DNA of 64,000 bases. Origin: Tubulanus polymorphus (taxonomy: Eukaryota > Animalia > Nemertea). Made by a program: the position numbers and the translations under genes. The stretch covers positions 7,056,275-7,120,274 of the forward strand of contig NC_134032.1 in NCBI RefSeq assembly GCF_964204645.1, given 5' to 3'. The notes beneath the pieces are model-generated. The model ran no database searches. It was not told where the DNA came from and saw only the letters and a program-made list of their open reading frames with translations. Shown piece after piece: positions 14,297 through 51,383 of this stretch (its first letter is position 1; each line of letters starts with the position of its first letter).

Positions 14297-14375
14297 TGAA
14301 TATCTCACTACTTTTGTCTATCTATGCGGAGCAATTAAATTGTCCAGATAAGTCATTTCGGATTCTAGATATTCA
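14297..14375 (-). ncRNA. Candidate structured RNA motif, copy in element C
   Basis: Same as 33905-34011 minus the variable hairpin. Confidence 0.5.
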
Positions 14376-15259: not shown

Positions 15260-15586
15260 TTAATCAACAATTTCTAAATCATGATGACCGTCTTCATTTT
15301 TCCCATGATATATTATTTTAAATCCTACTAAATCTTTCAATTCCTCCATACTCAATGAAACCCATTTATCGGGTAAAAACACTTTAAATTCTCGCGATGT
15401 ACTAACATTACAGTAGCTTAAATTAGCTGATACTTTCTCTCCATATTTAGTTTTTATCTTTTCTAATTTCAATATTTTATGTTCAATTTCTTTTGTAACA
15501 TCAACTAACTTTTTTATTTCAAATTGTTTTTTTGCTGGTTTTATTCTGTTATTTATTGTTGCTAAGAATGCTTTTCTATCTCCCAT
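15260..15586 (-). CDS. 108-aa putative SSB-like protein (right TIR of C)
   Basis: Inverted identical copy of 11309..11635. Confidence 0.8.
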   Translation of the reverse strand: MGDRKAFLATINNRIKPAKKQFEIKKLVDVTKEIEHKILKLEKIKTKYGEKVSANLSYCNVSTSREFKVFLPDKWVSLSMEELKDLVGFKIIYHGKNEDGHHDLEIVD

Positions 15587-15702
15587 TTATTAGGGAAAAA
15601 AATTACTTGTGGTGATGAGTAGGAAAAAAAAAATTACTTGTGGTGATGAGTGGTGTCTAGTACTCTCGTACTCTGGCCTGAAAGCCTACTTTCCCAGTTA
15701 CT

Positions 15703-31452: not shown

Positions 31453-33207
31453 ATTTTAACGGTGAATAAAATGTTTTTTTTAATTGTTTTACATTGTTTT
31501 TTTAATTTTTGGTTTTCTTTGTCTCGAATTTGCCCGTACTCAGGGAAAAGCGCCATCTAGGATTTAACTTCACTTCCCCCTCACCTTCACGTACACATAT
31601 GATCTCGTAATAGCGCCATCTAGGATTCAACTTTTCCCATAAACACGCATAGGAATGCGTAAGCGCCATCTAGGATTCAATCATACCAATAAATAAATTT
31701 GGATTGAACACCGCCAATAAATTTGATTTGGATTTAACACCGCCAATAAATTGATTTGGATTTGTTGTCAATAATTTGATTTGGATTTAACGGAAAAATT
31801 TTGAATTTTCCCGCCAAAAATTTGAAATTTGAATTTCAACCGCCACTTCCGGCCGCCATCTTGGATGACGTCACTTCCGGTCACCATCTTGGATTACGTC
31901 ACTTCCGGCCGCCATCTTGGATGACGTCACTTCCGGTATGACGTCATCCCTCCTCCCTCCCCCCTCCTCACTCCTCCCCCTCCCTCATTGAGGTCCTGAA
32001 GTGACATTTCCTAACTACTACTGGGTATAGATAATACGAGTGAAAGATTTTAAAAGTTATTCATTTGTCGATTTACGTAAAAACTCAACTTATAGTCTCT
32101 TTCGATTTTGGAACGTTCTTCTTCACATGTCTTGTTATTGTTACACCTTGGATCAGTAATCATAAGGTTACACTGCACATGCACTATATCCGATACAGTT
32201 GATCAGCAAGCGTATCAACCGAATTGATTTACTAGGGAAAAGAGACATTGTCCGAACATTTATCGTTTTAACGAATTGTTCGTATCATCGTGTTCACAGT
32301 ATCAGACTACTTGTATACCGATACATTCCACTATGTTATAAGATTTAACAAAATCGTATTTAATTCAATGACAATCATGTTCCAATGACGATCACTGTTG
32401 TTGTATCCTACAAAGATATCTTTAACCGTTCAAATTATAAACAGCTCCTGCGCGTATATATTCGTCTTGAAAGTACATATTTATATGATCAATCTTATCT
32501 TCAATCTTATTTGTATAAAGAAATGAAATGTTGTGTAAACCTCATTCATCAATTTGACTTGTAAGATATAATTGAAAAAAGAAAGATTATGTATATGAAT
32601 TTTGTACAATGATCGGTGGCTATTGGCGCTCGCTTGGTCTATACGTATGGAAAAACATGCCCTCAAAAGCTGGGACATGGTCAAATTCAGTGCCAGATCC
32701 ACCCCATGAACCAGCATTACAAAATGAAGAGAGACTATGACGATGGCAGTACTTCAAATCCAGGACCCGGTACTGTTTCAGGATCTTCACATCCCATAAT
32801 CACAGTTGAGTTGTGACCAACATACTCTGATTTTCAGAAGGGAGAGTGATCAAGGGAGGGAGGGGCGGGAGGGGAGAGGGAAAGAGAACAATAATTGTAA
32901 GTTGAATTATACGGAAGTATCAATGTTTATACCCTCTCATCAACGCAAGTTGTAATCAGGCCCATAGCCAGGGCCCTTCAAGGGGGTGTGCGATATAAAC
33001 TACAAGTGGACCTAACCACGCCGGTAAAGCCAAGCGGCTTATTGTTAAAATTTATCATTGTTATCATTACTGTTACTATTATTATCATCCATTGTTATAA
33101 TAATCAGCTTTTGTGCATTTGATATTTATTATATAACTTTTGATCACCGTCAATTGTCACTTTTACTTAAAAATAATTGTAATTGCACCTTAGCATGTAT
33201 TCATTTA

Positions 33208-33551
33208 AGTAATTAGAAAAGTGGGGTTTCAGATCAGAGGTCGAGAGGTCGAGACACCACTCATCACAGCTAGGCTCTAGTGAGAACGGACGATTGCTCT
33301 GTGACACACATATACAGTGAGTGCGCGTAACAGCAGCTGCGCGTGGATAGATCGATACAGTGAGTCTCTACTGAGAACGGTTATTAACGCGTGTGCTATT
33401 ATTGTAGTAGTACAGTGATTGCGTGTCAACTGTACCCGGATAAATAGATGCTGTGAGGCTTGGGTGAGAACGGTTAATAGCGTGTTTGTTATATACAAGG
33501 GGAAGTAATCCCCACTCATCACCACAAGTAATTTGTTTTCCTTATAAATGG
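33208..33551 (+). repeat. Left TIR of B
   Basis: Inverted match to 49869-50212 with about 5 mismatches; ends at the ATGG of the terminal gene. Confidence 0.95.
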
Positions 33552-33874
33552 GAGATAGAAAAGCATTCTTAGCAACAATAAATAACAGAATAAAACCAGC
33601 AAAAAAACAATTTGAAATAAAAAAGTTAGTTGATGTTACAAAAGAAATTGAACATAAAATATTGAAATTAGAAAAGATAAAAACTAAATATGGAGAGAAA
33701 GTATCAGCTAATTTAAGCTACTGTAATGTTAGTACATCACGAGAATTTAAAGTGTTTTTACCTGATAAATGGGTTACATTGAGTACGGAGGAATTGAAAG
33801 ATTTAGTAGGATTTAAAATAATATATCATGGGAAAAATGAAGACGGTCATCATGATTTAGAAATTGTTGATTAA
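33548..33874 (+). CDS. 108-aa putative SSB-like protein
   Basis: Homologs in A and C; function inferred. Confidence 0.75.
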   Translation: MGDRKAFLATINNRIKPAKKQFEIKKLVDVTKEIEHKILKLEKIKTKYGEKVSANLSYCNVSTSREFKVFLPDKWVTLSTEELKDLVGFKIIYHGKNEDGHHDLEIVD

Positions 33875-33904
33875 ATTTTTTAAAAAATAAATTAATAAAA
33901 ATAA

Positions 33905-34011
33905 TGAATATCTAGAATCCGAAATGACTTATCTGGACAATTTAATTGCTCCGCATAGATGGTGCCATAAACAGCACCACACAGTGATAGACAAAAGTAG
34001 TGAGATATTCA
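33905..34011 (+). ncRNA. Candidate structured RNA motif, copy in element B
   Basis: TGAATATCT/AGATATTCA closing stem, conserved internal loop and covarying inner stems. Confidence 0.5.
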
Positions 34012-34052
34012 ATTAATTAAAAAAAATTATTTTTTTGCTTTTTTCTAAAATA

Positions 34053-34421
34053 TTAATCCATTTTTTTTATTATCAATTTTGGAATTTCAGAAGTACTTTC
34101 ATTTTTGATAGCAGTTGGTTCAGAATTACTAATATCATGAATTTTATTTGATTTCTTATACCAACTACACCCAATCAAAATGAATACAATTACAAATCCA
34201 ACTGTAAAATATAAATATTTATCAAATATTCTACTATTAGAAGGAGTAGAAATAACAATATTTTCACCATTTTTATTAACATTTTTATTACTTATTTTTT
34301 CTTTTACAGCTTTTTTATATTCTTGTGATTTAATTCCTAATTGCCGAGACCATTCAATTTGTTTCTGAGTTCTCGGTTTTTTCTTCACAGTTAATTCCTT
34401 CACTTCTTTCACCTCGCTCAT
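34053..34421 (-). CDS. 122-aa basic single-TM protein
   Basis: KKPRTQKQIEW N-terminus; TM YLYFTVGFVIVFILIGCSWY. Confidence 0.7.
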   Translation of the reverse strand: MSEVKEVKELTVKKKPRTQKQIEWSRQLGIKSQEYKKAVKEKISNKNVNKNGENIVISTPSNSRIFDKYLYFTVGFVIVFILIGCSWYKKSNKIHDISNSEPTAIKNESTSEIPKLIIKKMD

Positions 34422-34953
34422 TTATTATAGAAATATTTTTACTTTCAATATTTGAAAATGTTATAACTCCAGTTGATAATAATGTCATAAATCCACCTAA
34501 TTGAAATGATAAATATCCAATCCATTTATTTAATTCAGTCATAACTAAATAATCATTTTTTAAATCGGAATATAATCTATTTTCATCTTCAATTGGTAGT
34601 ATATAATTACATAATTTACTATAACCTTTTACTACATTTTCTGATATCGCGTCATTAATTTTAGCTGTTCTCGCGGCTTCATAAATCTTAAATAATCTAA
34701 TAATTTCATCTGATTTCATTGTATCTAATTCATTATAAGTTAAATTTTTACCGACAAAATTTTTACATTTTCCAGATGCTATTAATATTTCTAATTGATG
34801 TTTACAATAAAGATAATATTCATAATTATTATTTGTTGTAACATTATTTAAAGCACCATCATCTGGAGTTTGTTTCTGTTATTCCTAAATCATCTAAAGT
34901 TTTTTCAATTGGAACATCACCATTTTTAGATTTTATTTTCTTTTCACCTCCCA
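34354..34953 (-). pseudogene. Conserved hypothetical protein, frameshifted near the N-terminus
   Basis: TAAATG start near 34953; frame upstream of the 121-aa ORF reads KHQLEILIASGKCKNFVGKNLTY. Confidence 0.6.
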
Positions 34954-34982
34954 TTTATATAACAAACAAATTAGTTGTGTTG

Positions 34983-35235
34983 TTGCAACTAGAATTCAAC
35001 TAGAATGTAACTAGAATTCAATTAGATTAACAAGCTAGTTGAAATATTGTTATTTTTGTTTATTTCTTGTTAAATCTAGTTGATTTTTGTTCCAACTACC
35101 AATAACTAGAATTCAACTAGAATGTAAATAGAATTAAACTAGATTAACAAGCTAGTTAAAATATTGTTAAATCTATTTGATTTTTGTTACAACTACCAAT
35201 AACTAGAATTCAACTAGAATGTAACTAAATATGTA
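34983..35235. repeat. Intergenic CAACTAGAAT direct/inverted repeat block, related to 11636-11760 in C
   Basis: Three AACTAGAATTCAACTAGAATGTAA units with interspersed CTAGTTG inverted copies. Confidence 0.75.
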
Positions 35236-35258
35236 ATTGATTAACAAACTAATTAAAT

Positions 35259-35866
35259 TTAAATAAATTCATATTTAAATGGGTGTTGTAATCTAAATAG
35301 TAATTTTGATCTTTTAATATTTTTCAACTTATCCATATATTCATTATGTAAATCATGTGGAATAATATCATTTTCCTCAAGTGCATTTTTCATCGATTTT
35401 CTATCTTTATTGTAGAATAAAACTAGAAATCTAATGTTTTCTCTAAAGTCTTTAACAATTGAATTATATTTTTGATTTAAAACCCAAGTTGTTATCCCAA
35501 AATGTCTCCCAGAGAAAGCTAAATAGCATAACTCACTTTCTCTAACTTTTGAATCATGTAGATTAGCACAATCATCTATAATGAATAATGTATTTGATCC
35601 TTTATAAATATCAATTGCTATTTTTATACAATTATCTAAATTTTCTTTTACTGTTTAGGATCTAATATAATAAATTTATTATTCCTAGTAATATTTTTAT
35701 CATAAGTTTGATTAAATTCATATGTTGGACAAAATAATACTATATTATCAAAATAGTTTTCATAAACAGTTTCTAATAAATGTAATATAAAATAAGTTTT
35801 TCCACAATTTGTTACACCAGAAATTAACATATTATGAGGCTCAAATATGAATAATTCCTTATTCAT
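35259..35866 (-). pseudogene. A32/FtsK-like packaging ATPase, frameshift near 35652
   Basis: Walker A GVTNCGKT; shifted frame gives Walker B LFIIDDC and SGRH...LNQ motif. Confidence 0.9.
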
Positions 35867-36994
35867 TTATATATTTTTAATTTTATTTGATAATATCCAT
35901 TCATTGAATTTATCTGGCCATCCAACCCATTTTACTAAAGAATATTTTTTTCTTTTAATAGTTTTTGTTTTTAATACTTTTTCAATTTTATATTCTTGTT
36001 CTAGATTTTCAGTAGTTAAACTTAATTCTTCTTCGTAAAAGTAGCCATCAACTTCTTCACCATCTAAATCTTCTAATTTATAGACATATGGTTTTGTTGT
36101 TATTACCTTTTTTATTTTATATATTTCTCTAGTAAAATTTCGATCGTATCCTTTATCAAATATCTTTTTATACTTAGAAATTCTAACATTTTGACCAACT
36201 TTAAATTTAGGTTCACCAAAATCATCTATAAGAAATGCTCCATATAAATTATTCCAAACAATTTCAGCATTTTCAGGTTTTCTAGCATCAATAGGTTTCA
36301 TTCCAATAGAAGAATGATAAGAATTATTATATCCTTCTATCAATTTTGGTAAAACATCAATCCATTTAAAAGTATTATTTGCTGTAAAATATTTCCACAT
36401 TCTTGTTCTTAATGTTCTATTAAATCGTTCAACAACTGCTGCTTTTTTATCTGATTTTGTTGAAAAATATTTAATATTATGATTATCTAAGAGTTCATGA
36501 ACAAGTGAATTATCAAATTCTTTTCCATCATCAAATTGTATTTTTTCTGGTTTTAGTTTATCATCCGAAAGAAATTTTCTTAAAACATTTGATGTTTGTA
36601 CAGCATCTTTTCTATAAAGTGGGAAGCTCCATATATAACGACTAAAAATATCAATTATATTCAATAACCACCAATAATCATCATTATCTTTCTTAACATT
36701 TTTCATATCAATTAAATCTCCTTGCCACTGTTGATCTACATAACTTACCATAGTTTTACGAGTTTCATATTTTCTAACAATTTTTTTATGTGTTGTATAT
36801 GTTGGTTGTTCTAACATAAATTCATTTATATCTTTGTATTTAACTAAATTTTGTGGGATTATCTTATCTAATTTATCTTGTTTTACTTGACGCCATATAA
36901 GTTTGGTAGAAGAATAAGCAACCGAACTCTCAGGGTTGTAATATAAATTTCTTAAATATTGTTCTTTAGTATTAGGAGTTTTTTTACCACTCAT
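35867..36994 (-). CDS. Retroviral-like (rve) integrase with C-terminal chromodomain
   Basis: DDE triad QGDLID / QFDDGKEF / VVERFNRT; chromodomain YKIEKVL...LVKWVGWPDKFNEWI. Confidence 0.96.
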   Translation of the reverse strand: MSGKKTPNTKEQYLRNLYYNPESSVAYSSTKLIWRQVKQDKLDKIIPQNLVKYKDINEFMLEQPTYTTHKKIVRKYETRKTMVSYVDQQWQGDLIDMKNVKKDNDDYWWLLNIIDIFSRYIWSFPLYRKDAVQTSNVLRKFLSDDKLKPEKIQFDDGKEFDNSLVHELLDNHNIKYFSTKSDKKAAVVERFNRTLRTRMWKYFTANNTFKWIDVLPKLIEGYNNSYHSSIGMKPIDARKPENAEIVWNNLYGAFLIDDFGEPKFKVGQNVRISKYKKIFDKGYDRNFTREIYKIKKVITTKPYVYKLEDLDGEEVDGYFYEEELSLTTENLEQEYKIEKVLKTKTIKRKKYSLVKWVGWPDKFNEWILSNKIKNI

Positions 36995-37024
36995 TTATAT
37001 ATCCTTAATTTTAACTTTATATTT

Positions 37025-38270
37025 CTAATATTGAATACTATCTAATTGTGAATTTACAATATTTAATTGTGCGTCAGATATAATATAAATATGCATTTTA
37101 AAATTTTTGATTCCTTTATTCTTTTTCATAAATAATTGTATTCCATCTTTAGTGTTTTGTAGTTTTTTTCCAGAACCATGTAATGAATTATCCTCTGTTG
37201 TTCTAAAATCTAACCATAATGCATATTTATTACCGGTATAATAATCAATTTGATTAATGTTACAATTTTCAAATGATTTTATTTTTTCATTCATAAAATG
37301 TTTTTTAATTTCTACCCATTGATCTATCATTCTCATTCCTTGACAAAATATTTTATTCGCTATTCCTTCGATAGTTATTTCTACTTTTGTTATTTCAGGA
37401 TTATAATAATTGTCAACATTTATTGCGCCATTAGTATACGTTCCAATAGTAAAAAATATTAATATACCTTTAATAGATCTTCTAGGAAAGTTAATATTCT
37501 CATTTATTATTTCATCATTTGCATTAATAGTTACAGTTTTAAATTTATCAATATAATCATATAATAATGAAAATCCTTGATTGTATTGAGTTTGAATTAT
37601 ACTTGAAATATTTTCATCAGTTACTGTATCATATTCTAAACATATATTCGATAATTTATAACTCATATCTTTATTAACGCTAGATAATACAATTTCATTT
37701 ACAGGAGCAAATGTTATCTCAAATATAATATCTTCTTGAATTGCGTATTTATATAAAGGTGCATTATTATTTATCAATTCAAAGTCTAATGGAATTTTAT
37801 ATTTGCTTCCATATATACTTTTTATCAATTTATCTACATCATTTGTTAATATTGCGCTATTAGCTTCTGATCTTAATTTATTTTGGTTTTCTGATTGAAT
37901 TCCTTGAAATATCATATTATTTCTATTTTCTTTAGTTAACCATAAATCTTTATAATGCATAAATAAATTATAATCATCTAATGAGAACTGTTTCCGGACC
38001 AATCTTTATTGTTAACTTTTTAATCAAATATCTTCCAACATTATCAACAACATAATTATTATTATTACCGATTACTTTTATATCGGCTGATAAATAAATA
38101 CTATTTGGAACATAAAAAGTATTTTGTGTTAATCTAGGAATTCTAACATATAAAGTTTCATCGGGATTAATATTTGAAGGGTTATGAGTAATTATATGAT
38201 GTGATCTTTCTGCTTTAATAGCATTAGATATTCTATGATTCTTCAAAGGACTTATATAACTCCCACTCAT
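37025..38270 (-). pseudogene. Major capsid protein (double jelly-roll), frameshift near 37985
   Basis: 98-aa and 325-aa ORFs join into a ~415-aa beta-rich protein adjacent to integrase and ATPase; only MCP-sized candidate in a complete element. Confidence 0.75.
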
Positions 38271-38294
38271 TTATTTAACAAAAAAATTAATTAT

Positions 38295-39731
38295 TTATTT
38301 TTTGATATTTTTTGATATCATGTTTACTAACCCAAAAATAATAGCACTTACAACTGTGATTAAAAATAAAATAATATGTTCAGCAGCAAAGTTAATAATG
38401 TTTCCTGCAGATTTCAATATAAAACCAACAATTGAAGCAATAACTCCTGGTAGTGCTGCAGCAGATTTTTTAGATAGTTCCCATAAATATTTTGCTAATT
38501 TCTTTAAACCATCCTTAACTTTATCTTGTATAGAATTATTGCCTGGAGGTTTATCTGGTTTATTGGGAGTGGGAGTAGATTTTAAAGCATTTGATATAGC
38601 TAAACCAATTGTTGTAAATAACATAGTTACAGCTGTTAGAATTGAAAGAATTGTTATTCCTTCTAATTTAAATAATAATCTTATTCTGTCTTTTAGTGAT
38701 ATTTCAGAATTTGGTTTAATCAACAAATCTTTAAAAATAACTTTTAATCTATTAATATTATAATCATATGATTTTAACAATAATTTAATTTCTTCTTTTT
38801 GTAATTCTATGTTATATTCTAAATCATCTTTTTCTTTTTCTAAACGTAATTCTTTTTGCCTATATTCTATTTCATCAATTACTTGATGATCTAAATCGGA
38901 CTTTAATTGTTCTATTTCTTTATTTTTATCAGTTAATTCTTTTTCTAAAGTTCTAATTTTAAAATCTCTTATACTTTTATTATGTGCAATTTTATCAGAT
39001 GCAAGTCTTATACTAATAATTTCTCTAATTGCTTTATCAGAAAATATATCTAAATCTTCTAATTCTTGATCTGTTGCATCAAGTAACCCATTCGGTAAAA
39101 GTTTTTCAATTGGAACTTTATTTGATTTAAGTTTACTATTTTTGGAAGTTATATTCTGTTCAGAAGTTGTTTCTGTTTCTGATTTCTTTTTGATTATTTC
39201 AAATAATTCATTAATTCTTTGTTTAAATACATCTATATTATCATCTATTTCTTTTTGTGTAACATCAGTTATTTCATTACTATTGCTTATTATTTTAATT
39301 CTATCTGGTTTTAATTTTTCTAAAGTTGATTCTGATAATATTTTATTTTTATTATTTTTATAAGTGATATCAATATAATAATCACCTTTCAAACGATAAT
39401 AACATTTACCATTATCTAAAAATTTTAATTGATCTGCTAAAAGTCCAACGTCTTCATCATTTATGTTAAAATTAGATTTTTCAATTAAATCTTCTAATTT
39501 AGGTATTTTGTTTAAATTATCTAAATCTTGTTTTACTAAATCTGGGTCTAAATTTTCAGGATTTAATTGTGATTCAGCATTTTTAATATAATCAGGCATA
39601 TTCAAATTATTATTATATTCTGGCTCGGTACCATCATTAAAACTTGTTTCATCAAAATCAGGTGGTTGTTCATCAGTTATACCAGGTTCATCAAAAGGAT
39701 CCATTCTAATATCTCCACCTTCTACATCCAT
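38295..39731 (-). CDS. 478-aa acidic/coiled-coil protein with C-terminal hydrophobic helices
   Basis: Long heptad region, then GITILSILTAVTMLFTTIGLAI, an amphipathic helix and IILFLITVVSAIIFGLV. Confidence 0.8.
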   Translation of the reverse strand: MDVEGGDIRMDPFDEPGITDEQPPDFDETSFNDGTEPEYNNNLNMPDYIKNAESQLNPENLDPDLVKQDLDNLNKIPKLEDLIEKSNFNINDEDVGLLADQLKFLDNGKCYYRLKGDYYIDITYKNNKNKILSESTLEKLKPDRIKIISNSNEITDVTQKEIDDNIDVFKQRINELFEIIKKKSETETTSEQNITSKNSKLKSNKVPIEKLLPNGLLDATDQELEDLDIFSDKAIREIISIRLASDKIAHNKSIRDFKIRTLEKELTDKNKEIEQLKSDLDHQVIDEIEYRQKELRLEKEKDDLEYNIELQKEEIKLLLKSYDYNINRLKVIFKDLLIKPNSEISLKDRIRLLFKLEGITILSILTAVTMLFTTIGLAISNALKSTPTPNKPDKPPGNNSIQDKVKDGLKKLAKYLWELSKKSAAALPGVIASIVGFILKSAGNIINFAAEHIILFLITVVSAIIFGLVNMISKNIKK

Positions 39732-39748
39732 TTATATAATAAAAAAAA

Positions 39749-41164
39749 TTAAAATTTAAAATATAATATTCCTCCGATTATAATTCCTATACAAGTTATA
39801 GCTAATTTAGTATTTTCATGTGATTTATTATCATCATTTAGTTTAATTATATCATGTTGAATATTATCAGTTCTATTATCACCGTGTGGGTGCCGTACGG
39901 CACCATTTTCTGATGTATTATAATCTTTTATTTTAGAATCATTATTTAATTTAATATTCTTAGTTTTAGTTTCTGTTGATTGAATATGTTTTTTATTTTT
40001 TTCACCTTCCATTAATTTTGGAGCAGTAATAATCTTTTTATTTATATCATTTAATCCAAATGAATTATTTATTGTCGCAGTTTTAATTAGATTATTATAA
40101 CCAATTATATTTCCCATCTTTAATACTAAATCATTAGAAATAATTAATAGATTAGGGCCTATACAATAATTAAGTCTTACATGAGATTTATCTAAATAAT
40201 TTTGATATCTTATAATGTTTTCTGGAATCGATCTATTTTTATCATTATGAATTGAATCTTCAAATAAAACTTTAAATTGTTTTTGTGTATCGAATGATGT
40301 ATTCAAATTTCCAATTATCGGTGATCTTGTTTCAACTTGTGATCCTAGAATACAAATCAAATAAGTTCTAATAGATTGATTTATTCTTTCTATACCTGAT
40401 TTAGTAAAACCTTCACTATTTTCTAAAATAAAATAAACCCAACCATTATTGTTTTCTTGTTTTAAATTATCATAAAATTTTGGTAATTTATTGAAATTTA
40501 ATGTTTCTAAATCCTTTGTTTCTATTTTACCATAACCTAATTTTTTATTATAGATATTATAAAAGCTATTAGATGGTATGGGAAGTGCACAATATTCTGC
40601 AATCTTTCTAGGGCAAGGAAGTGATCTTATTGTTCCAATTTTTATTCTAAAATCAGAATTATTTATATCTATATTAAATTCATTGCAAATTTTATAAAAC
40701 TTTGATAAATTAATATTATTATCTAATTCTTTAAAATATCTAGATCCTGGTAAAGCGCACTCTAATTCATTTAATATTATTCTGATTTGAAAGTATGTAT
40801 GAAATCTAAATAAACTTTGAATTAATTTATATTAAGAATTATTCAAATGATCATTCCAACTAATTCCACATCCTGTTGTTGCACAATAAACAGCAAAATT
40901 TAATTGGTTCTGCCAATACTTCATATTAGATTTTAATAACCATTGTTTTTCATCTTTCAATTTTTCAAAATCAATTAAATATACATGAAATATATTTTCC
41001 ATCTTTGCATTAAAATTATTAGTTTCAGTAACATAAATATATAAATCAATTAATGAATCTAAAACTTCATTTCTATATGTAATATCTTTATTAAAATCTA
41101 TTGCTGGAATATTATATTTAATTGATTTATTATATTGGAAAGTTTTTGGAAAACTATCTGCCAT
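39749..41164 (-). pseudogene. Conserved Polinton protein with C-terminal TM, nonsense at 40832-40834
   Basis: Colinear with 611-2044; A reads AAA where B has TAA. Confidence 0.8.
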
Positions 41165-41204
41165 TTATATAACTAAAAAATTAATAATTTATTAATTCTT
41201 TTAA

Positions 41205-41606
41205 TTATTTATCTTGTTCTTCAACTGTTATATGACCATTTAAACTTATTATATAATCTAGTGTATTCTTTAATTTATTAATTTCTTTTATATTAGTTTT
41301 GATTTTTTCTTTATTACTTTTTATATTTAATTTTGAACTTATACCAGTTAAAACACTTGAACTTAATCCTAACACACCAATTGATATAGCTAATGGACTG
41401 AATATTGCTAGAAATGTTATTACAGAACTAATTGTAACCGAACCACTGATAATCAAATAATATATAATTTTACTTTTTAAATATTTTTTCTTTTTTATCT
41501 TTAAGTCACTTTCAAATTCTAATATTTGTTTTTCTAAATATGTTTTTAATTTAGTTTTATTTATATCATGAGGAATAATATCAATACTATCAACTTTATC
41601 TTCCAT
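41205..41606 (-). CDS. Two-TM protein, slightly truncated by nonsense codon
   Basis: Homolog of 2062..2496. Confidence 0.75.
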   Translation of the reverse strand: MEDKVDSIDIIPHDINKTKLKTYLEKQILEFESDLKIKKKKYLKSKIIYYLIISGSVTISSVITFLAIFSPLAISIGVLGLSSSVLTGISSKLNIKSNKEKIKTNIKEINKLKNTLDYIISLNGHITVEEQDK

Positions 41607-41625
41607 TTATTTAGCAAAAAAATTA

Positions 41626-42048
41626 CTAATTAGTAAACTTATGAGCAACAAATATAACAATAACAGTTCCGCCTAAAATCCATATTATTTCATATTTCTG
41701 TTGTTCTTTACTCGGGGTATAATAATCTGATAATTTAGGTTTGTATAGATGTAATTTTTCTTTATTTGTTACTGCGTTATATAAACTCATTGCATCATCA
41801 ACTGATTGAAAATCTCTATGTGAAATCTTCTGATCATATAATTCTTTGTTAATATAATCCATATAGTTTTGTCTCTTTTCTCTATATTCTTCTGCATCTT
41901 TATTATATTTCTCTAACGCTAAATTATGTCTTCTTTGTTCTCCTAATGAACTATTTTTATCAATATGTTTAAATAAATAACCACCACCAGTAAATGCTAA
42001 AGCGTTAACAATTGCCGATCCTATAATAGTTATAATTGCAGAAGCCAT
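41626..42048 (-). CDS. 140-aa putative membrane-active protein (PW-like)
   Basis: Homolog of 2516..2938. Confidence 0.55.
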   Translation of the reverse strand: MASAIITIIGSAIVNALAFTGGGYLFKHIDKNSSLGEQRRHNLALEKYNKDAEEYREKRQNYMDYINKELYDQKISHRDFQSVDDAMSLYNAVTNKEKLHLYKPKLSDYYTPSKEQQKYEIIWILGGTVIVIFVAHKFTN

Positions 42049-42073
42049 TTATTTAGCAAAAAAAATTATGCAT

Positions 42074-42295
42074 TTATATGGGAGGAATATATTTTTGTTT
42101 TTCCAAATAATCAATAGTTAAATTAGATAAAGTAACTGCTAACGTTAATTTCAAAATATCATTGATATCAAATCTATCAACATTAACACTTCCCATTTTG
42201 AATACTTTTTTTAATACCATTGAATAACCAACAGTTCCAACTGATAGTAATGCGCCATTATATAATCCAGTTATTATCCACTTATTATCACTCAT
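42074..42295 (-). CDS. 73-aa hydrophobic protein
   Basis: Identical to 2963..3184 protein. Confidence 0.75.
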   Translation of the reverse strand: MSDNKWIITGLYNGALLSVGTVGYSMVLKKVFKMGSVNVDRFDINDILKLTLAVTLSNLTIDYLEKQKYIPPI

Positions 42296-42298
42296 TTA

Positions 42299-42643
42299 TT
42301 AATCAAAAAAATTACTATCTTCAAAATATTTAGTTATCTTAGTGATGATTAATTCAACATTTATTTCATTACTAGTTTTATGATTATCATATATTTCGGT
42401 TAATATGTTTTTAATATCATCGATGATAAAATCTTCATCTAATTCATAAAATCTTAAAGACTCGGTAATCTTTTCTACATTAAAAGTTTCTTTATCAATT
42501 GTTGTTTCATACTCAAATGTTGTTTCATTAGAAAATGCAATATTTTTGATATGTGTAATTACATCATTAATGTTAAATTTCATTTCTTTACAATGTTTAA
42601 AATCAAATCCAAAACATATACTCGGTCCAACAGTTATATTCAT
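42299..42643 (-). CDS. 114-aa hypothetical protein
   Basis: Homolog of 3185..3526. Confidence 0.7.
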   Translation of the reverse strand: MNITVGPSICFGFDFKHCKEMKFNINDVITHIKNIAFSNETTFEYETTIDKETFNVEKITESLRFYELDEDFIIDDIKNILTEIYDNHKTSNEINVELIITKITKYFEDSNFFD

Positions 42644-42659
42644 TTATATAATGAAAAAA

Positions 42660-43457
42660 TTACTCTCTACATCTTATAACTAATTCATATATCACAGGAA
42701 AGTTATTTAAATCAATTAAGTATCCATTATGATTTCTAATTTCTAATCTAAAATTATTAAATTGAGGAATACAAGGTTTGAAATCACATTCAGCTAAATT
42801 ATAATTTATTTGCGTTCCAAATTGTTTAACATTCTTCAATGGTAAAATGTTTAATATACTAGAATTACATGTTGTATCTTTAGTTGCTTCGAATGTTTTT
42901 GTAGGATCGATTAAATTGCAATAAATATAAAAGTGTGTAAAAGGTATTATATTTGAGTTACCATGTTTGTTTCCACCAAATTGATTTGGAGTAATTCCTA
43001 ATAGTTTAGCTATAGGTTTTTTTACTGTGTAAGTATGTCTTCTTGTCATCAATGGATCAGATTTAACAAGTTTAATAAGTTCATCATCAAGCTTTATTTT
43101 AATTTTATTAGAGCTCTCACTTTTTATGAATTTAATATTAAATTTGGAATTACCATTACCTAATCTAATCCGAGCTTTTCTATTAATTTCTTGCGCTAAT
43201 GTTTCTAAATTATATAATCCTGGTGTAAGCATAAGTTGAATCCATTTTTTTTCAAGTTTATCAAAAATAAGAAGGCTTCTATGTTCATCAGTTTTATCCG
43301 ATATATTATAAAAAGAATTACATAAACTTATATTTACTAATTTTAAATCTACACAATTCTTAAATTCTCTATCTAATTGTACTAATAAATTATGAGATTT
43401 ATAATTTATAAGTTTTCTAGAATCAACAAATATTCTGTATTCTTTTAATTCTACCAT
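42660..43457 (-). CDS. Minor capsid protein (penton)
   Basis: Homolog of 3544..4305. Confidence 0.75.
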   Translation of the reverse strand: MVELKEYRIFVDSRKLINYKSHNLLVQLDREFKNCVDLKLVNISLCNSFYNISDKTDEHRSLLIFDKLEKKWIQLMLTPGLYNLETLAQEINRKARIRLGNGNSKFNIKFIKSESSNKIKIKLDDELIKLVKSDPLMTRRHTYTVKKPIAKLLGITPNQFGGNKHGNSNIIPFTHFYIYCNLIDPTKTFEATKDTTCNSSILNILPLKNVKQFGTQINYNLAECDFKPCIPQFNNFRLEIRNHNGYLIDLNNFPVIYELVIRCRE

Positions 43458-43514
43458 TATTTATAACATAAAAAAATTACACTCATCACCACAAGTAATT
43501 TTTTCCCCTAATAA

Positions 43515-44816
43515 ATGGATGAGAAGATAGCATGCGAAATTTGTGGTGAACTTATCAGAAAGAGTAATATGGCTCGACATATGAAAAAACATGATGAAAA
43601 TTATAAACCCCCTAAACAAAACTGTCCAAAATGTAATAAATTATTCTCAAGAAATTATGTTAAAAAACATTCAGAGAAGTGTAGAATTAATGGCGCAACG
43701 GCTAATGTTGATAGTAATTCTGCTGAAGTTGAACCTGAAGTTATTTGGAAAAGACCTTTCTTATTCTATGATAAGGATAATATAAAAGATCATTTCTGTG
43801 AGCCTTGTCAAGTAAAATATAACCCCGAAAATATAGAAGATTGGGAGAATCATCAATTTCGTAAAGCACATATAGATAAAATTTCTAATAAATTTGAAAC
43901 TGAATTCAATGAAAGAAAAAATAATTTATTAGAAAAAATAAAATATGAGAAAACGTTACTAGATAATAAAGAAACAGTTGAAAAGTTAGAAAAACAATAT
44001 AATGAATTAACAAGAAAAACATATTATTGTAAATATTGTAAATTGATTATTACAACAAGTAATTCAAATCTACATAATAGAACAATAAAACATAAAGAAA
44101 ACGTAAGAAAATACCAAGAGCTTAATGAAGATCTATTACCAATATATTATAAACAAAAATGCCCACAATGTATTTATGCGACCTTAAGACAAGAAGGTAC
44201 TATGTTATTTTGTGTTGAATGTGGATGGCAAAAGAATTTATGGGGTGAAGAAAAAACTAGAGATTTTCTCATAGAACCAAAATTAAATTATCTAGATGAA
44301 ATTTTTAAAATATTTTCTATAGAAGATCATACACCAGAATATATGCAATGGCTTGAAAAAATGAAAATAATAGAAAATAAAAATGGTGAAATAACTAAAA
44401 AAGATATTATAAAAACAATTATTCCACCAACATTTAACACAAAACAAAAGAAAATGTATTTATATTTATTATTTAACGATTATTATGAAAAACCTAAATT
44501 AACAGAAGAAGATATGGAAAATATTAAAAAAATATTCAAACAAATATTAATGTATCATTTGGAAAATAGAATAACAGATTCAATAAATTATGAATTCTTT
44601 TTAAATAAGATTGTAAATTATTTAAACATAGATATTATAATTCCATTTGACGAATTAACAAACAAAAAGAAACAAAGAGAGCGAGATGAAATGTGGAACA
44701 AGATAGAAATTTATTTAAATGAGAAAAATGGAATTGAAGAAGAACCTGAACAATTAAATGAAAATGAAGAAGCCAATAGTGATTTCGAGTTTGATGATAT
44801 TGATTTTATGTTTTAA
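43515..44816 (+). CDS. 433-aa multi-zinc-finger protein
   Basis: CEIC..H..H, CPKC..H..C, CEPC..H..H, CKYC..H..H and CPQC..CVEC clusters; acidic tail. Confidence 0.8.
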   Translation: MDEKIACEICGELIRKSNMARHMKKHDENYKPPKQNCPKCNKLFSRNYVKKHSEKCRINGATANVDSNSAEVEPEVIWKRPFLFYDKDNIKDHFCEPCQVKYNPENIEDWENHQFRKAHIDKISNKFETEFNERKNNLLEKIKYEKTLLDNKETVEKLEKQYNELTRKTYYCKYCKLIITTSNSNLHNRTIKHKENVRKYQELNEDLLPIYYKQKCPQCIYATLRQEGTMLFCVECGWQKNLWGEEKTRDFLIEPKLNYLDEIFKIFSIEDHTPEYMQWLEKMKIIENKNGEITKKDIIKTIIPPTFNTKQKKMYLYLLFNDYYEKPKLTEEDMENIKKIFKQILMYHLENRITDSINYEFFLNKIVNYLNIDIIIPFDELTNKKKQRERDEMWNKIEIYLNEKNGIEEEPEQLNENEEANSDFEFDDIDFMF

Positions 44817-47800
44817 TGGCCATAAGGTAATGTTTTTATACCATCATCTAAAATATGCCTTTTATCATCAAATGGATTTAAACTAGTTTTTTCAATTTCA
44901 TTTATGTACATTTCATGATTTTCTGATCTTAAACAATTCATTTTGTGTTTCATTACAATTGATTTATATAAACACTTTATATAATCTTGAAATTCTATAT
45001 GTTTATCAACCACATGTTTTGTTATTCCTTTTAACTTTTTAGCTTCATGTTCTTTAGTTTTATATGAATACATTTTACTTCTTATCCCAACAAATTCAAT
45101 CATTTCATCACCTCCTAATTCATCTTTAAATTTACCAGGAATCTTTTTATTATCATTGCTAAATAGTTCATGATCTTTAGGATAATTGCTAAAATCAAAA
45201 TGATGTTTTAATGTTTTTAAGTCTTTTGTTATGTCATTTGTCTTGATTTTTAGTATGTAGGCGTCGGTATTTTTTGGATTAATGGGAACCCAGAATTGAA
45301 TGTTCCATCATCTGTTGATAAATCATAAACATAGTCAGTTGGGTTATATATTTCAAATAAATCTTTAACTTCTTCTGTTAACTCATTTTCTACATGGCTT
45401 AAATTAAAGCAATTTGGTTTAGATTTAATCAATCCAATATTCATATTAAATCCTAATGAACTGCATAATATATTCAATCCTGATATAGCAACTTTTCCTT
45501 TTTGAGCTAAAGATATTGTTTTGCGGTTTTTGAAACTTTTTGAACCATCTGCAGCATAGAATCCAATGAAGAACCATTTTCTTAAATTATTTTTTGCATT
45601 TAATACATAATCTGGAACTATCTTTTCTTTTGTTGAAGTATTACTTTTCACTATTGCATGAATATAGAATTCATCATTATATTCTATAGCAAAATCTTTA
45701 GGATTATTTACAAGTATTCTATAAACTGCTGTTGATTTCATAACATCCATGATTCTAAATGTTTTATGTGAATAAACTTCTTCACAGAATTTCTTAATTC
45801 TTTCTAATAATTTTAAGTCTTGATTGCATAAATACCAACAATATTTAGTTCCACTAACATAATTATACACACCTGCTGAACCATCGCCCATGAAAAATCC
45901 TTTGATAAAATATTCTTTTTCTTCCAATGTTTCGGGTTCTATATTATAAATATTATCAATTATTTCATCAAATGACATATGATTCATTCTTGGGTAAAAT
46001 CTTTTATGTAATAATTCATCTCCAATTTTTATATCAGTTGGTTTTATTTCATCACCATTTTGTTTAATTAAACTATGATCTTCAGTAACATCAACAAATC
46101 CTAATTCAGTTCTAACTCTATAGATTTTCTTATTTGTTTTATGTCTAATAATATTCTTTAATTTTTTCCATCCATTTCTTGTCCAAACATCCATTAATCC
46201 ATTTATTTGTATTAATTCTTTTTCACCGTATGAAATATAACATTCATTTTGTTTTGGAATTATTTCTGAAATTCTTCTTACCAATATTTTATCATTACAT
46301 TTTAATAATATTGGGGTGTCAGCTGTTACAGAATCAAAATATAATATTTCTATATGTTTTTCTCCAAAAAGTGGTTGTAAAACATTATAATAAAAATCAT
46401 ACATTAATAATTTTGATACTTCTAAAACAGTCGAACCAATAAATATAGGTTTATTAAATTTCATTGATGTTCTTTTTAATTTAACTGCTGTTAAATAATC
46501 TTCAAATCTTTTATTTCCTAAATGTCTAGGACTTGATTGTAAATGTCTTAATCTTTCAGAATTATTTACTAATTCAATATCATTTCTATTTCTAATATTT
46601 TCACATGTTTTACCATAAAAACTATTGTTCATTAATTTAAAGAAATCTTTTTCAAAATCTGTTTTTGATATGGTTCTCTGTTGAGTATTGAAATCTATAT
46701 ATTTTTCTAACCACTTCGATTGATTAAATTCAATATATCTATGTACTTTCTTTAATTTCATTCCTTGTTTTAGATAAAATTTTAACATTCTATAATGAAC
46801 AATATAATTGTATTTATTATTTTGAGTAAGTATTAATTTTTCCGTAAAAACATGATCTTTCGGTTTTACTTTCTTCTGGTATTCACTTAAATAACTATCA
46901 TCTACAACTAAATGTTCAGGGCAATAAGGTAAATTTCTTGTTTTAAACTTTATGTTATCAGGATATTCCAAATCAACTACAAAGAAATAACCAATTGGTG
47001 CTTCATCTTTTAAACTCGTAATTGCGCTTTCCCAGTCAGTTTTATCATCATTTTCAACTTCAGTTAATATAAAATTTTTGTATGGTTGAGGTTGCATCAT
47101 TGCCCAACCATATAAATTATTGGCGTCAATATATAATAATTTATATTCATCATTTGCTTTAAAATACCTATCTCCCATAACACCACTAATTCCACCTCTA
47201 ATTGATTTTTCAAATAATAAAACCATATCTGGTTCTTTTAATAAATCTAATTCTACATTTGTATATTTTAAACCACATTGCCAGGTTAAACCAGGACTTG
47301 AACAACAATAACAAGGGTCAACATTAAAATGGTTTAGATTAACTTCTCTAAACTTTTCAAATATATCTGCCAATATCATAACATCTGATTTTAAATATAA
47401 ATCAACTAATTCACCATGATTTTTCATATTAAAATGGTTCCAAATATTTAATGTTCTATTAAAAACTTCGTCTTTCACATACTCCTCTTTTAATTGATCA
47501 TAAAATTGATCTTTTAATAATTCTGTTACATTAAAATCATCATGTGTTTTATAAAATGAATAAGGAATTGCGCCTTTATATCTCAATAATTTAAAATCTT
47601 GTTCATTTGGATAATAATATCGAGTTATAATAAAATCATTATCAACTAATGATTTTGATAAATTATCTAATGAACTTGCTAGAAATCTATAAGAATCTAA
47701 AAATCTAATGCAACCAAATTGAAATGAAATATAATTTTCAGATGTTTTAGCTAATAGTTTAAAATCATATTTTCTTACATTTGCTTCATTCATAGCATTA

Positions 47801-49872
47801 TATTCTTCTATTTCTTGATTAATTGCACCCAATTTTCCCGATAATTGTTTTATAAATAGATGGGTATCATATCCTGATAAATTATGAAATAATATTGGTA
47901 CGAAATTTACTTTTTTAGCTTGTAAATTGCAATCTTCATGAGCAGCTCCACGATATTTTGAATTCAAATGATCATGATCTCTAACTCTTTTATCAAATGA
48001 ATAAAAACGTTTTTCACAATAACAACAATGAGTTGCATAATTAAAATCAATTTCATCTTCTTTTGTCATAACTATTCTTTTATTTTTGTTTAATAATTTT
48101 GCAAAATCACTTTCTAATTCAATAATTTTGTTATAAAAATCATTAACTACATTTTCACCTCTAAAAGAAATATATTGACTTTCATATAATTCGGGATAAT
48201 TTGATTTGATGTAAATTCCATAAGCAGCAGCTCTTTGATGAACTTTTTTAATTGTATTTATAATTGGTGGGTCTTGAATTATATCTTCATTTAATTCATT
48301 TCCTTTATCCATTGATTTTAATAATTGCTTTTTGTTATATATTTCTTTTCTATCTTGATCAGTTAATTCTTTATTCAACGATTCAAAATCCCCATAAATT
48401 ACAAATGGAACAATATTTTTAAATTTATGATTAGTAAATTTCAATTTATAATCTTTTTCTGCTGGCATTATTAATTTACAAAAATCTTTAATATCACATA
48501 ATTCTTTATGTTTTAGTAACGCATTCTCAGTTCTAAATTTAGATAAACATTTTCTACATAGATAAATTTTACGATGATGATCACTTTCTGTTGTTCTAAA
48601 GAATAAATCAATTTGTTTTAACCACATATAATGTTCATTTTCATCTTTTTTGTAATATAACAAATCTATAGCATTTTCATCGTCATAATATTCTGTTAAA
48701 TATAAAGCTTCCAATGTATAATCTTTAATATTTTCACCTTTTGTCTTTGGTAATTGCATTAATTCAAATACATTTATTTTTAAATTATTAATTTTTTCTA
48801 TTTTAGGAATCATTTTTATAGTTACTGGATATTGATCAATTTTATATAATGTTTCATATTTCCGATAATCTGTTATTCTACAAACATTTTCCTGCGTTGG
48901 ATGTAAGCAACTAATAATTGACCATAGAAAACATTTATTATCTTCATTTTGAATATTTATTACTGCTTTTGTTATAAATGGTAATTTAATATAAGATGAT
49001 GCTTTAATATCCTTTTCTGTTGTAAAGTTTGAATCATTTTTAAACATTTTATTACTTTTTGATGTTTTATTCCTTTTTGTATTATAAACATTTAAATCTA
49101 AATATATAATTTCATTCAATGTTAAGCCAGAACCCTCAAAATATCTTTCTTCAATATAACGTTTAAATTCATTTAATATTTTTTCTAACTTCTCTTTTAT
49201 TTGTGTTTTTGAAATTATTTCTTCAGAGAGTGTTTGAATATTATAATCCATTTTTTCTTCTGACTTTATAAAACTTACTTTCCCAGAGATACTAATTTTT
49301 GGATATTCAACATCTGTTATCAAATCTAGTAATTTTTCTATTATTTCATTAAATTTACTATAATCTTCTATTGTTGTACCTTTAAAAAATCTAAATATAA
49401 TAGCTGCAGGACCAATTTTACTATGTAATGTTTCTAAGATTTCAATTGTATCTTTTATTTCTAGTGAATCAATATAATTTCTAACATTTTCCATGTAAGG
49501 TTTATTTGAAATGGATTTAGTTTTTGAAGTTGATTCTTTTACTTGTTGAGGTTTATTATCAAAATATTCTAATCCTAAAACATTTTTATTTAAATTTTTA
49601 TAATGTTTTTGTGATTCGAGATGTCTATTATAATTCCTTTTTACTATAAATTCATTACAAACTTCACATTTTATTTCATCCACATTCATATTTTCTAATC
49701 GTTCTTTTCTTTCATTGGAATTTTCTGGAGTTTCAATATCTATTACATTTTTTATATGATTTAAAGACTTTTCATGACGCGATTTTTGAGATTTATCAAT
49801 GTATTTTTTACAATATGGACAATGATATTGATTTTCATTAACATCAATTTGTTCTGTCTTATTCTCTTCCAT
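44813..49872 (-). CDS. polB: Protein-primed DNA polymerase B with intein; one-base frameshift at 45270-45275
   Basis: N-terminal zinc fingers, OTU-like DNKCFLWS...EHY, EndoVII-like RDHDH...AHEDCN, exonuclease and polymerase motifs; adding one A joins the 1540-aa ORF to 44813..45103. Confidence 0.95.
45269..46332 (-). mobile_element. Intein with LAGLIDADG homing endonuclease (~355 aa)
   Basis: YFD|SVTADTPI...VTEDHSL...FIKGFFMGDGS...FFIGFYAADGS...VYDLSTDDGTF...QKN|TD; absent from the A pPolB. Confidence 0.93.
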
Positions 49873-50212
49873 TTATAAGGAAAAAAAATTACTTGTGGTG
49901 ATGAGTGGGGATTACTTCCCCTTGTATATAACAAACACGCTATTAACCGTTCTCACCCAAGCCTCACAGCATCTATTTGTCCGGGTACAGTTGACACGCA
50001 ATCACTGTACTACTACAGTAATAGCACACGCGTTAATAACCGTTCTCAGTAGAGACTCACTGTATCGATCTATCCACGCGCAGCTGTTGTTACGCGCACT
50101 CACTGTTTATGTGTGTCACAGAGCAATCGTCCGTTCTCACTAGAGCCTAGCTGTGATGAGTGGTGTCTCGACCTCTCGACCTCTGATCTGAAACCCCACT
50201 TTTCTAATTACT
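49869..50212 (-). repeat. Right TIR of B
   Basis: Inverted match to 33208-33551; includes the pPolB ATG. Confidence 0.95.
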
Positions 50213-51383
50213 CATTTAGTATATTCTATTGTCATTTTATCATTTATTTGTACTATTAAAAAGCCAAGCGGCGAAGGCTCGTAGTTTTGATGCGAGGTCA
50301 ACCCTCATTTGGTTTCAATAGCTGGTCCTCTGATCAGAAAACATCAAAACACTGAATATGAAAATGACATTTAGTATTTTACAATACGGCACTTCGCATT
50401 TGCCTCGGGTGCAGATTGGCAAATAGATCGAACACTTTTTCTGGGAAAATATATCCCCCCATTGGCAAAATTACGGACCCGACTTTCGCACCCAACGCAG
50501 CCCCTGGCTACGGGGTTACGTAAATTTGAGTGTAATCATGGAAAAGGTGATTTTCTTGTGCTTCAGTCGTTCGGACCTTGGTTCACAAAGACTACTCCAG
50601 CTGATAGGGTTTGATTGATATTTTCGATCACTTCGTTCATATCTTTCTTCTAATCCAGAGATATGAACGAAATGAAGGGATAAAACTGGAAATGATATGG
50701 AGAAAAATTTCAACAACGTGCCTGGGTAAAAAGGTTTTGTAGCCGACCAATATGGCTATGTGGTGTAAAGCTTTAAAGTTAGTGGATTACATGTGGTTGT
50801 TTACTTAGGACGCTAGGTTTTTATGCGAAATATATTCATTTTCTTGATTTGGGGAAAGTTCGGTGATAAGTCCAACCCTTGATAGAACGCGTACAGAACG
50901 ATTTTAGCCCATTTTCAACACTGAATAAGCTTTTCTGTTCGACTTCTTGTGAATTTTATCTAGTGGAGGTATATAAAATGTGTATTTTAATGATTTCTTT
51001 TTCGAGTATCGATTCCTTTTCTGAAGACATAGCAGCGATCTTATACACAGAATGATTAATGAAAAAATGATTCTCCAAAAAGTTCATCGAGCAGCAATCT
51101 CCCGCATTACATCCAACAACCCCCTTGATTTTGACGATTTTACTCTACTGTAAATTCTATCAATTATCTTAACTGGGTCAAGGAAGTGTAAGTTTCCGGA
51201 CTAGGTCAACTACGTACGTACCATCTGTTTGGCCGGAGTCTGAATGCGCGCAATTTATTTCGAGAAGTCGCACGAAGCAAAATCGGGTAGCAACTTTACT
51301 TTAGAACTAAGGTCTAATAATCTATCGAGATGTGTAGCAAAAGTGATTCAAATGGATGGACATTTTTGTATGCTTCAGTTTAA

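Follow-up and report, generated by a model that had tools for sequence, protein, structure and literature searches.

Which transcription machinery reads a Polinton-like virus whose genes nearly all begin at the same hexamer, TAAATG? The question is raised by a 64,000-nucleotide stretch of the Tubulanus polymorphus assembly GCF_964204645.1 (contig NC_134032.1, positions 7,056,275 to 7,120,274; referred to here as the window, with coordinates counted from its first letter), within which three AT-rich islands of 22-25% GC lie between flanks of 35-38% GC. One island, element B (33208..50212; 17,005 bp, 24% GC), is a full-length Polinton-like virus as judged by its terminal inverted repeats (TIRs), target-site duplication (TSD) and gene content. 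Element A (1..9216, minus strand) is a related copy that runs off the left window edge, and element C (11194..15702; 4.5 kb) is a non-autonomous relative with 444-nt TIRs and the TSD GAAAGA. The sequence comparisons described below indicate that the motif belongs to a real, clade-wide promoter system of poxvirus type on an integrated Polinton-like virus. We lean towards the reading that B, A and C are integrated Polinton-like viruses expressed by poxvirus-type post-replicative machinery, that is, integrated virophages of a poxvirus.

The TAAATG start motif and its upstream core

A preliminary description of this DNA had reported TAAATG at 14 of 15 gene starts in B, 8 of 9 visible starts in A and 4 of 5 in C, and recounting returned exactly these figures. 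The three exceptions, namely the penton candidate at 43457 (TAAATAATG), the protein-primed PolB (pPolB) of A (TAAAATG) and one start in C (TAAAAATG), all retain TAAA no more than a few bases from the ATG; the start at 34954, which is among the 14, heads a broken gene. ORFs (open reading frames) at 40117 and 997, considered as genes without the motif, were rejected when single-frame tblastn identified them as the 3' part of the 442-aa gene. Enrichment over background, a check that the description had called for, was clear against control frequencies of 2-10%. TAA preceded 35 of 649 other ATGs in B, 26 of 363 in A and 9 of 141 in C (5-7%), and 14 of 657 and 10 of 519 ATGs in the host flanks (2%). 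A control limited to the first ATG after a stop, which corrects for TAA being itself an in-frame stop, gave 11/176 in B, 10/101 in A and 3/49 in C (6-10%). The binomial p for B was 1e-15 (14/16 against 6.2%), or 7e-11 when the TIR-type promoter, present in three copies, was counted only once (12/14 against 10%), both calculated from older, more conservative totals. The starts are not all independent: three in B come from one duplicated promoter cassette, the two terminal ORFs of C are copies carried by its TIRs, and long stretches of A and B share 74-88% identity. The T6-8 tract noted upstream in the earlier work was found at 9 of the 14 TAAATG starts of B and at the penton start, and the ORFs of B appear uninterrupted save for frame breaks, consistent with the proposed absence of introns. 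The promoter cassette, CACTCATCACCACAAG with a T-run, is reused at TIR ends and inside B (43480-43514, 33510-33547, 49873-49910 and 11272-11308), which suggests that new genes were recruited by copying a ready-made promoter.

A scan of metagenome contigs yielded 19 loci with a related major capsid protein (MCP). In 16 of these, which range from 20 to 44% GC and have shuffled gene orders, TAAATG was found at 60 of 72 mechanically called starts, with the near-duplicate loci L004/L005, L011/L012 and L030/L031 kept in the counts; several of the 12 misses are fragments of broken genes. The motif was absent from all 11 starts of the sister loci L015/L017/L019, probably one lineage with the same gene set at 29-30% GC (Fisher p 8e-8), and from all four starts of the more distant L020, which has TAAAATG at three. 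Among 17 IMG/VR elements with a related pPolB, it headed 12 of 209 starts. A quick MCP tree of 32 rows placed the 12 motif-bearing rows on one side of a branch (Shimodaira-Hasegawa-like approximate likelihood ratio test, SH-aLRT, 80), with L015 outside. Because of this clade restriction, the wide GC span and the 0/11 count in an AT-rich sister lineage, TAAATG is a lineage trait and not a product of AT-richness. Scans of viral_contigs with the MCP and the integrase found no relatives.

The lineages outside the clade have start motifs of their own. In L015/L017/L019, AATATA or TATA-like motifs lie just 5' of the ATGs and AATAAA is mildly depleted (8 against 13.9). TATATA has been described as an asfarvirus-type late motif (PMC11788076, PMC5294985; these and all other papers are cited here from parts of their text), and the start motif of this lineage could track another helper or be nuclear. 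L020 has divergent spacers shorter than 60 nt with TAAAATG starts (240-295 and 2964-3018); this locus sits in a bacterial metagenome-assembled genome and is probably a binning contaminant.

Aligned on TAAAT, the promoters of the family have A at -15/-14, a T-run from -13 to -7 that peaks at -11 to -9, and A at -1, and non-start TAAATG sites have none of this upstream pattern. T occupies the 10th base before TAAAT in 20 of 26 window promoters and 43 of 60 locus promoters, compared to 53 of 159 non-start TAAATG sites. In vaccinia virus, a conserved T lies ten bases upstream of the TAAAT(G) of late promoters (PMC11980589), and the intermediate promoters combine TAAA with an A/T-rich core that lacks this T (PMC11980589, PMC5294985). 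In chordopoxviruses, the TAAAT element also templates a 5' poly(A) leader through slippage (PMC4542343).

Comparison sets were assembled from IMG/VR. A scan for divergent TAAATG pairs, which by design selects two such starts per locus, gave 59 loci, and one of the top loci, L055, carries the pox families NPH-II, G9/A16 and E10. Alignment seeded with the NPH-II of L055 led to 45 loci with full-length NPH-II that were taken as poxviruses, other markers having been checked for L055/L097 only. A non-pox large-virus set comprised 30 of 32 loci with weak helicase matches, taken together as a set and not individually classified, after L146 and L149 (12.6-kb records) were dropped. TAAATG headed 384 of 986 starts (39%) in the pox loci, even in those of 66-68% GC, and T peaked at -11 to -9; in the non-pox loci the hexamer headed 34 of 391 starts and no T peak was present. 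A further group resembling L076, which encodes RNA polymerase subunits and which we take from its gene content to be iridovirus-like, has TAAATG at 50 of 175 starts (29%) with an A-rich core. Two contigs of 19-25% GC, L099 and L118 (78 and 94 kb), carry a full-length NPH-II 41-43% identical to the query; they appear to be divergent pox-like viruses on metagenome-type contigs, with no link to this host.

A matrix built from positions -20..-5 of 261 pox promoters was scored on 68 element promoters. It separated element starts from non-start TAAATG sites of the elements with an area under the curve (AUC) of 0.87-0.90, compared to 0.59-0.60 for the L076-like matrix and 0.59-0.75 for the non-pox one. 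These AUC values are inflated by the difference in composition between coding and spacer DNA, and column-permuted matrices were therefore used as a control. The pox matrix beat its permutations at three offsets (p 0.002-0.005), as did a matrix from the 21 AT-rich pox loci alone (p 0.002-0.007), whereas the L076-like and non-pox matrices had no positional fit (p 0.15-0.66). The element promoters themselves fall into two groups. The promoters of the MCP gene and of five conserved genes beside it have a mean of 4.8 T in -13..-8 (34 promoters), and those of the ATPase, the integrase, the 122-aa gene and two pentons are A-rich and average 2.4 (16 promoters; p 1e-5, for groups picked after the data were seen and containing homologues that are not independent). 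The T-run and A-rich classes may parallel late and intermediate promoters; intermediate genes of vaccinia include DNA-packaging proteins (PMC11980589, PMC5294985).

Candidate machineries reading the promoters

Under the poxvirus reading, the bipartite signal of A/T-run plus TAAATG would be read by the RNA polymerase machinery with which a co-infecting poxvirus-type virus transcribes its intermediate/late genes. Transcription would start inside TAAAT, and slippage would add a 5' poly(A) leader as it does in vaccinia. Until the helper infected the cell the element would be silent, and it would then be replicated by its own pPolB and packaged in its own capsid. T-run promoters would act late, and the A-rich ones (ATPase, 122-aa gene, some pentons) would act at the intermediate stage. 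Copy B, with 5 of 15 genes broken, is defective, so that such a cycle would need intact copies.

Pfam scans detected no RNA polymerase, TBP or TFIIB family among the scanned element proteins, and B has no unassigned ORF large enough for an RNA polymerase; the element would therefore borrow a transcription machinery, and we infer that it depends on a helper. The preliminary description had proposed transcription by a pox-like or other nucleocytoplasmic large DNA virus (NCLDV) machinery. That proposal stands in so far as there is a real, bipartite motif specific to the clade, with a core that fits poxvirus promoters by position, and no transcription gene was detected. What fell away is the support that it drew from an NCLDV-type intein. 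The intein of B (45289..46332, minus strand), which has a LAGLIDADG endonuclease, is inserted in polymerase motif C, and its group (SH-aLRT 99) contains seven further inteins from other pPolBs, one of them in a pPolB of a different type. The tree was a quick one of 61 rows from 109 full-length matches, with P0123 and P0125 labelled pPolB from rank and context. Further relatives lie in Pol-delta-like polymerases, and pox-specific Pfam domains were present in none among the 120 matches listed. The intein thus belongs to a clade spread among Polinton pPolBs and was discarded as a pox link; its relationships show what appears to be old exchange with that intein family. The motif-C intein clade (P0121-P0131) spans pPolBs that include a 136-member cluster on large contigs. 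The pPolB of A, which is split, lacks the intein, and this empty site beside the filled site of B is a possible homing pair.

Besides the loss of the intein, several observations weigh against a poxvirus-type helper. No helper virus was found in this host, and 134 proteins of the element family had no match among 1,071 ORFs of the pox loci (about 22 kb per genome compared). The zinc-finger proteins encoded by the element could serve as its own regulators. TAAATG by itself is not exclusive to poxviruses, and several non-pox contigs of the motif scan (L067, L088, L066) have many TAAATG starts. For the five loci nearest an insect-type pox query, the fit reached significance at just one or two of the three offsets (p 0.004, 0.21 and 0.043). 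The 261 pox promoters represent one orthologous region and are not independent, the failure of the non-pox promoter sets (27 and 41) has low power at their small size, and asfarvirus and egovirus promoters lay outside the compared sets. No report of a poxvirus of molluscs or cnidarians was found in the literature searched, and read assignments to such virus families are often host genes (PMC11097642).

The signal might instead be read by a different large DNA virus, iridovirus-like, asfarvirus-like or an undescribed member of the Pokkesviricetes, with a late initiator overlapping the ATG, in which case the element would still be a virophage-like parasite. This alternative, which we consider unlikely, draws on the TAAATG starts of the polymerase-encoding L076-like group and of L067, L088 and L066 (two per locus selected by the scan), and on an intein family found mostly in Pol-delta-like polymerases. 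The differing motifs of the sister lineages, TATA-like in L015/17/19 and TAAAATG in L020, are also expected if lineages track different helpers. However, at -13..-10 the L076-like promoters are rich in A and those of the element have T, and the L076-like matrix gave the lower AUC cited above with permutation p of 0.15-0.42. Late promoters of African swine fever virus have TATA-type initiators and AU leaders (PMC5294985, PMC7163114).

Transcription in the nucleus by host RNA polymerase II is less likely again. An element factor such as the 433-aa zinc-finger protein would direct it, and the likeness to poxviruses would be convergence on an AT-rich initiator. It would suit an integrated, high-copy family with zinc-finger ORFs in B and C (contigs of at least 85% identity numbered 11,183, 2,311 and 2,825 in three sequencing runs of one organism, and these thousands indicate many diverged copies). 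Against it, no TBP, TFIIB or polymerase family was found among the scanned proteins, and T at -3 is contrary to the usual animal start context. Divergent ATG-to-ATG spacers are 57 nt in B and 19-30 nt in six related loci, where they serve two genes. AATAAA is undepleted in coding strands at about one per 200 coding bases (67 against 64 expected in B; 187 against 194 in relatives, with L031, a duplicate of L030, omitted), which gives weak support to non-nuclear transcription. Short spacers, a motif that overlaps the ATG and undepleted AATAAA are together a poor fit to polymerase II and a good fit to a poxvirus-type enzyme. Depletion of the pox early terminator TTTTTNT from coding strands was also considered as support and was rejected, as it reflects general homopolymer avoidance and is equal for A6 and in control elements. 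We regard as improbable, slightly more so than nuclear transcription, that the promoters are a relic, the ancestor having needed a pox-type helper and present copies spreading as transposons that merely inherited the motif. Five broken genes in B, the split pPolB of A, the non-autonomous C and the lack of a helper would all agree with this. Against it, orthologous and rearranged starts alike retain the motif among relatives whose MCPs share only 50-77% identity, and unrelated internal ORFs of C also carry it, which argues for lasting selection. Very improbable, finally, is that the TAA preceding the ATG serves translation or compaction (by coupling a stop to a start or by closing upstream frames) or is a by-product of AT-richness. 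Two tandem pairs in the window do use the upstream stop as the TAA (35866/35867 and 3184/3185), but only 2 of 60 locus starts adjoin a stop, and this explanation is largely refuted. Nor does it account for a stop that is always TAA with A as the preceding base, a position-specific core 7-15 nt upstream, or a motif that occurs at 40-44% GC and is missing at 29-30% GC.

The broader form of the poxvirus reading, to which we give slightly less than even chances, is that the family consists of widespread endogenous poxvirus virophages of marine animals, present as many germline copies with the whole gene set under intermediate/late transcription. If so, the promoters would be a footprint of undescribed marine-invertebrate poxviruses and a candidate for an inherited defence against viruses, each sister lineage with another start motif would point to a different helper, and poxviruses are predicted in hosts for which the literature searched describes none. 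It would also offer a general method, to infer the helper of a Polinton from its start-codon motif. It is a standing question whether the Polintons of animals live as autonomous nuclear viruses, as transposons or as parasites of large DNA viruses, and a clade-wide promoter gives a sequence-level prediction for it. To our knowledge, helper dependence has been demonstrated in protist systems only. No report of pox-type promoters in Polintons was found in the literature searched, which was mostly open text without supplements, and term searches of the accessible text of PMC11131425, PMC11161782, 10.64898/2026.10.13.758929 and 10.1101/2024.03.23.586382 found no mention of promoters. A pacmanvirus transpoviron is described as carrying helper promoters (PMC11788076).

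Genes of element B and other features of the window

Element B is flanked by 6-bp duplications of CATTTA (33202..33207 and 50213..50218). Its left TIR (33208..33555, plus strand; 348 nt, beginning AGTAAT) and its right TIR (49865..50212, minus strand) each have a T-run plus TAAATG promoter at the end, for a 108-aa ORF and for pPolB, respectively. CATTTA is the reverse complement of TAAATG, possibly by chance; CATATA follows the presumed right end of A, and the GAAAGA duplication of C is unrelated to TAAATG. The gene content of B comprises a pPolB with an intein, an rve integrase, an A32 ATPase, two capsid genes and ten more genes. The broken genes are those for pPolB, MCP, ATPase and the homologues of the 442-aa and 206-aa genes, through decay or assembly error. 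Antisense 80-aa ORFs in the TIRs and an ORF at 38320-38763 were treated as spurious.

All genes of B start at TAAATG except the penton candidate, and all lie on the minus strand except two. The 108-aa ORF (33548..33874, plus strand) is present at both ends of C and in the close relative L001, which also has a deoxynucleoside kinase gene (10340-10981; Pfam dNK E 2e-31) with a T-run and TAAATG start. It is followed by a 122-aa ORF with a hydrophobic stretch and an A-rich core (34053..34421), the homologue of the relatives' 206-aa gene with its 5' part broken (34354..34954), and the predicted A32-like packaging ATPase (35250..35866; Pfam Pox_A32, A-rich core, break near 35650). The predicted retroviral-type integrase (35867..36994) matches Pfam rve (E 2e-10) and, weakly, Chromo. 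Beyond the MCP gene lie a 478-aa coiled-coil protein with a hydrophobic C-terminus and a T8 run (38295..39731), the homologue of the conserved 442-aa gene with a premature stop near 40832 (39749..41164), and a 133-aa protein with two transmembrane segments and a weak SLATT-like match under the cut-off (41205..41606). Next come a 140-aa conserved family protein with a T8 run (41626..42048), a 73-aa conserved hydrophobic protein (42074..42295) and a 114-aa ORF (42299..42643). The 57-nt bidirectional spacer (43458..43514) holds two T-run promoters, one of which copies the TIR promoter cassette, and separates the penton candidate from the 433-aa zinc-finger protein (43515..44816, plus strand; Pfam zf-U1, weak C2H2 matches). 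The pPolB gene (44813..49872; Pfam DNA_pol_B_2 E 3e-19) has its frame broken at the C-terminal junction of the intein near 45270.

The MCP gene (37025..38270; T7 run) is in two frames with a break near 37970, and its product has 639 homologues. A model of an intact relative (predicted local distance difference test, pLDDT, 82.5) matches double-jelly-roll (DJR) capsid proteins of iridoviruses, PBCV-1, mavirus and Sputnik at 8-12% identity, and by this model the MCP is a DJR capsid protein. Relatives in the P0013 cluster have been entered as hypothetical proteins on short contigs of several Bartonella assemblies, and are likely contamination. The 265-aa product of 42660..43457 is likely the penton, a minor capsid protein. 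It scored 0.97-0.98 in Atlas to Preplasmiviricota and Sputnik V18/19 clusters, with a recognition score under the tool threshold; its model (pLDDT 46) has a weak VIA match to the mavirus penton (Z 4.7, root-mean-square deviation 8.3, 209 aligned). No maturation protease family of the Ulp1/adenain type was found when all ORFs of B and 17 from relatives were scanned with Pfam, several ORFs remaining unassigned and not folded.

The right end of A (8799-9220) is a 420-nt imperfect palindrome (74%) with AGTAATAGGGG on both arms and a GC-rich central hairpin, and differs from the TIR of B. Element C has the 108-aa ORF in each TIR. It also contains a zinc-finger ORF, 24-nt and 47-nt tandem arrays and, near 14600-15250, an insert of higher GC content; the internal ORFs, which are unrelated, likewise start at TAAATG. 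Degenerate ACTAGAATT-like repeats are common to B (34950-35260) and C (11630-11830), where they lie between converging transcription units. Outside the islands, a 6-kb inverted repeat with 99% identical arms (17771-23781 and 26011-32019), a foldback-like element or assembly feature, carries a PC4-domain ORF (19485-20132; Pfam E 4e-14) and a cysteine-rich ORF. Host-side mobile DNA at 59364-62604, 9796-10803, 51374-52614 and 58809-59397 comprises a broken PIF1-helicase element, a transposase-like remnant, an inverted GTCGAC-repeat array and a 35-nt tandem array. The host looks animal-like from the sequence of a flanking ORF, whose sole homologue is a scallop protein, 44% identical across half its length; this is compatible with a marine invertebrate.

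Comparison with known systems

By gene content B resembles the Mavericks/Polintons (Polintoviricetes) of animals, with which it has in common a pPolB (broken in B), a retroviral-type integrase, an A32-like ATPase, a DJR capsid protein, a likely penton, TIRs beginning AGT and a 6-bp TSD. It differs from them in having no detected protease, an MCP with neither a Pfam match nor a close adintovirus structural match, and clade-specific pox-type promoters. Some elements of corals, hydrozoans and bivalves fall outside the Maverick groups (10.64898/2026.06.19.733378).

The promoters of the family share with the intermediate/late promoters of poxviruses TAAAT over the ATG, a T-rich core about 10 nt upstream with a spacer of 5-7 nt (absent in the A-rich subset), an A-rich class, and no space for a templated leader. 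In contrast to pox promoters, the element core is sharper and about one base closer to the start, and the motif is on 83-93% of element genes compared to 39% in the sampled pox regions. The cytoplasmic linear plasmids pGKL1/2 of yeast encode an RNA polymerase of their own and lack capsid and integrase, whereas B has capsid and integrase genes and no RNA polymerase was found in it. Like B, these plasmids are pPolB replicons, and they have TAAA-type initiators beside the ATG and slippage-made 5' poly(A) (PMC6831550).

Polinton-like viruses, or PLVs, were found in entomopoxvirus occlusion bodies (AHEV_PLV1/2, CBEV_PLV1 and Ca_PLV1) and, in line with our reading of B, were proposed to be poxvirus hyperparasites (PMC11296320). 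Compared by description, they are about 12 kb and have an adenovirus-type protease but no rve integrase, whereas B has an integrase and an intein. Their link to poxviruses is co-purification, whereas that of B is promoter evidence without a physical link; a term search of the accessible text of PMC11296320 found no promoter analysis.

In structure comparison the MCPs of mavirus and Sputnik rank below those of iridovirus and PBCV-1 (8-11% identity), no virophage MCP was among the named sequence matches of the MCP of B, and by its modelled capsid B does not appear to belong to the virophage class. In lifestyle features it does resemble virophages, with a promoter motif common with a group of large DNA viruses and no RNA polymerase of its own. 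Mavirus and endogenous mavirus-like elements, virophages of CroV, are similar to B in having a pPolB, a retroviral integrase, TIRs and an AT-rich island in the host genome. Mavirus differs in that the capsid protein of B is only about 8-10% identical when aligned by structure, no cysteine protease was detected in B and the host of B is likely an animal. The motif of B is of pox type and not the TCTA of CroV, and its helper dependence is proposed from sequence. As in B, one motif precedes nearly all genes of mavirus and matches the late promoter of a large virus (10.1101/2022.07.28.501842). Sputnik and mavirus use the late promoter of the helper extensively, and Gezel the early one (10.1101/2022.07.28.501842). 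Every gene of B, including pPolB and integrase, appears to be on a post-replicative signal, which matches the late-promoter use of mavirus and Sputnik. B thus probably works like a virophage of a poxvirus-type helper, if with only modest confidence, and rather doubtfully like one of another large virus.

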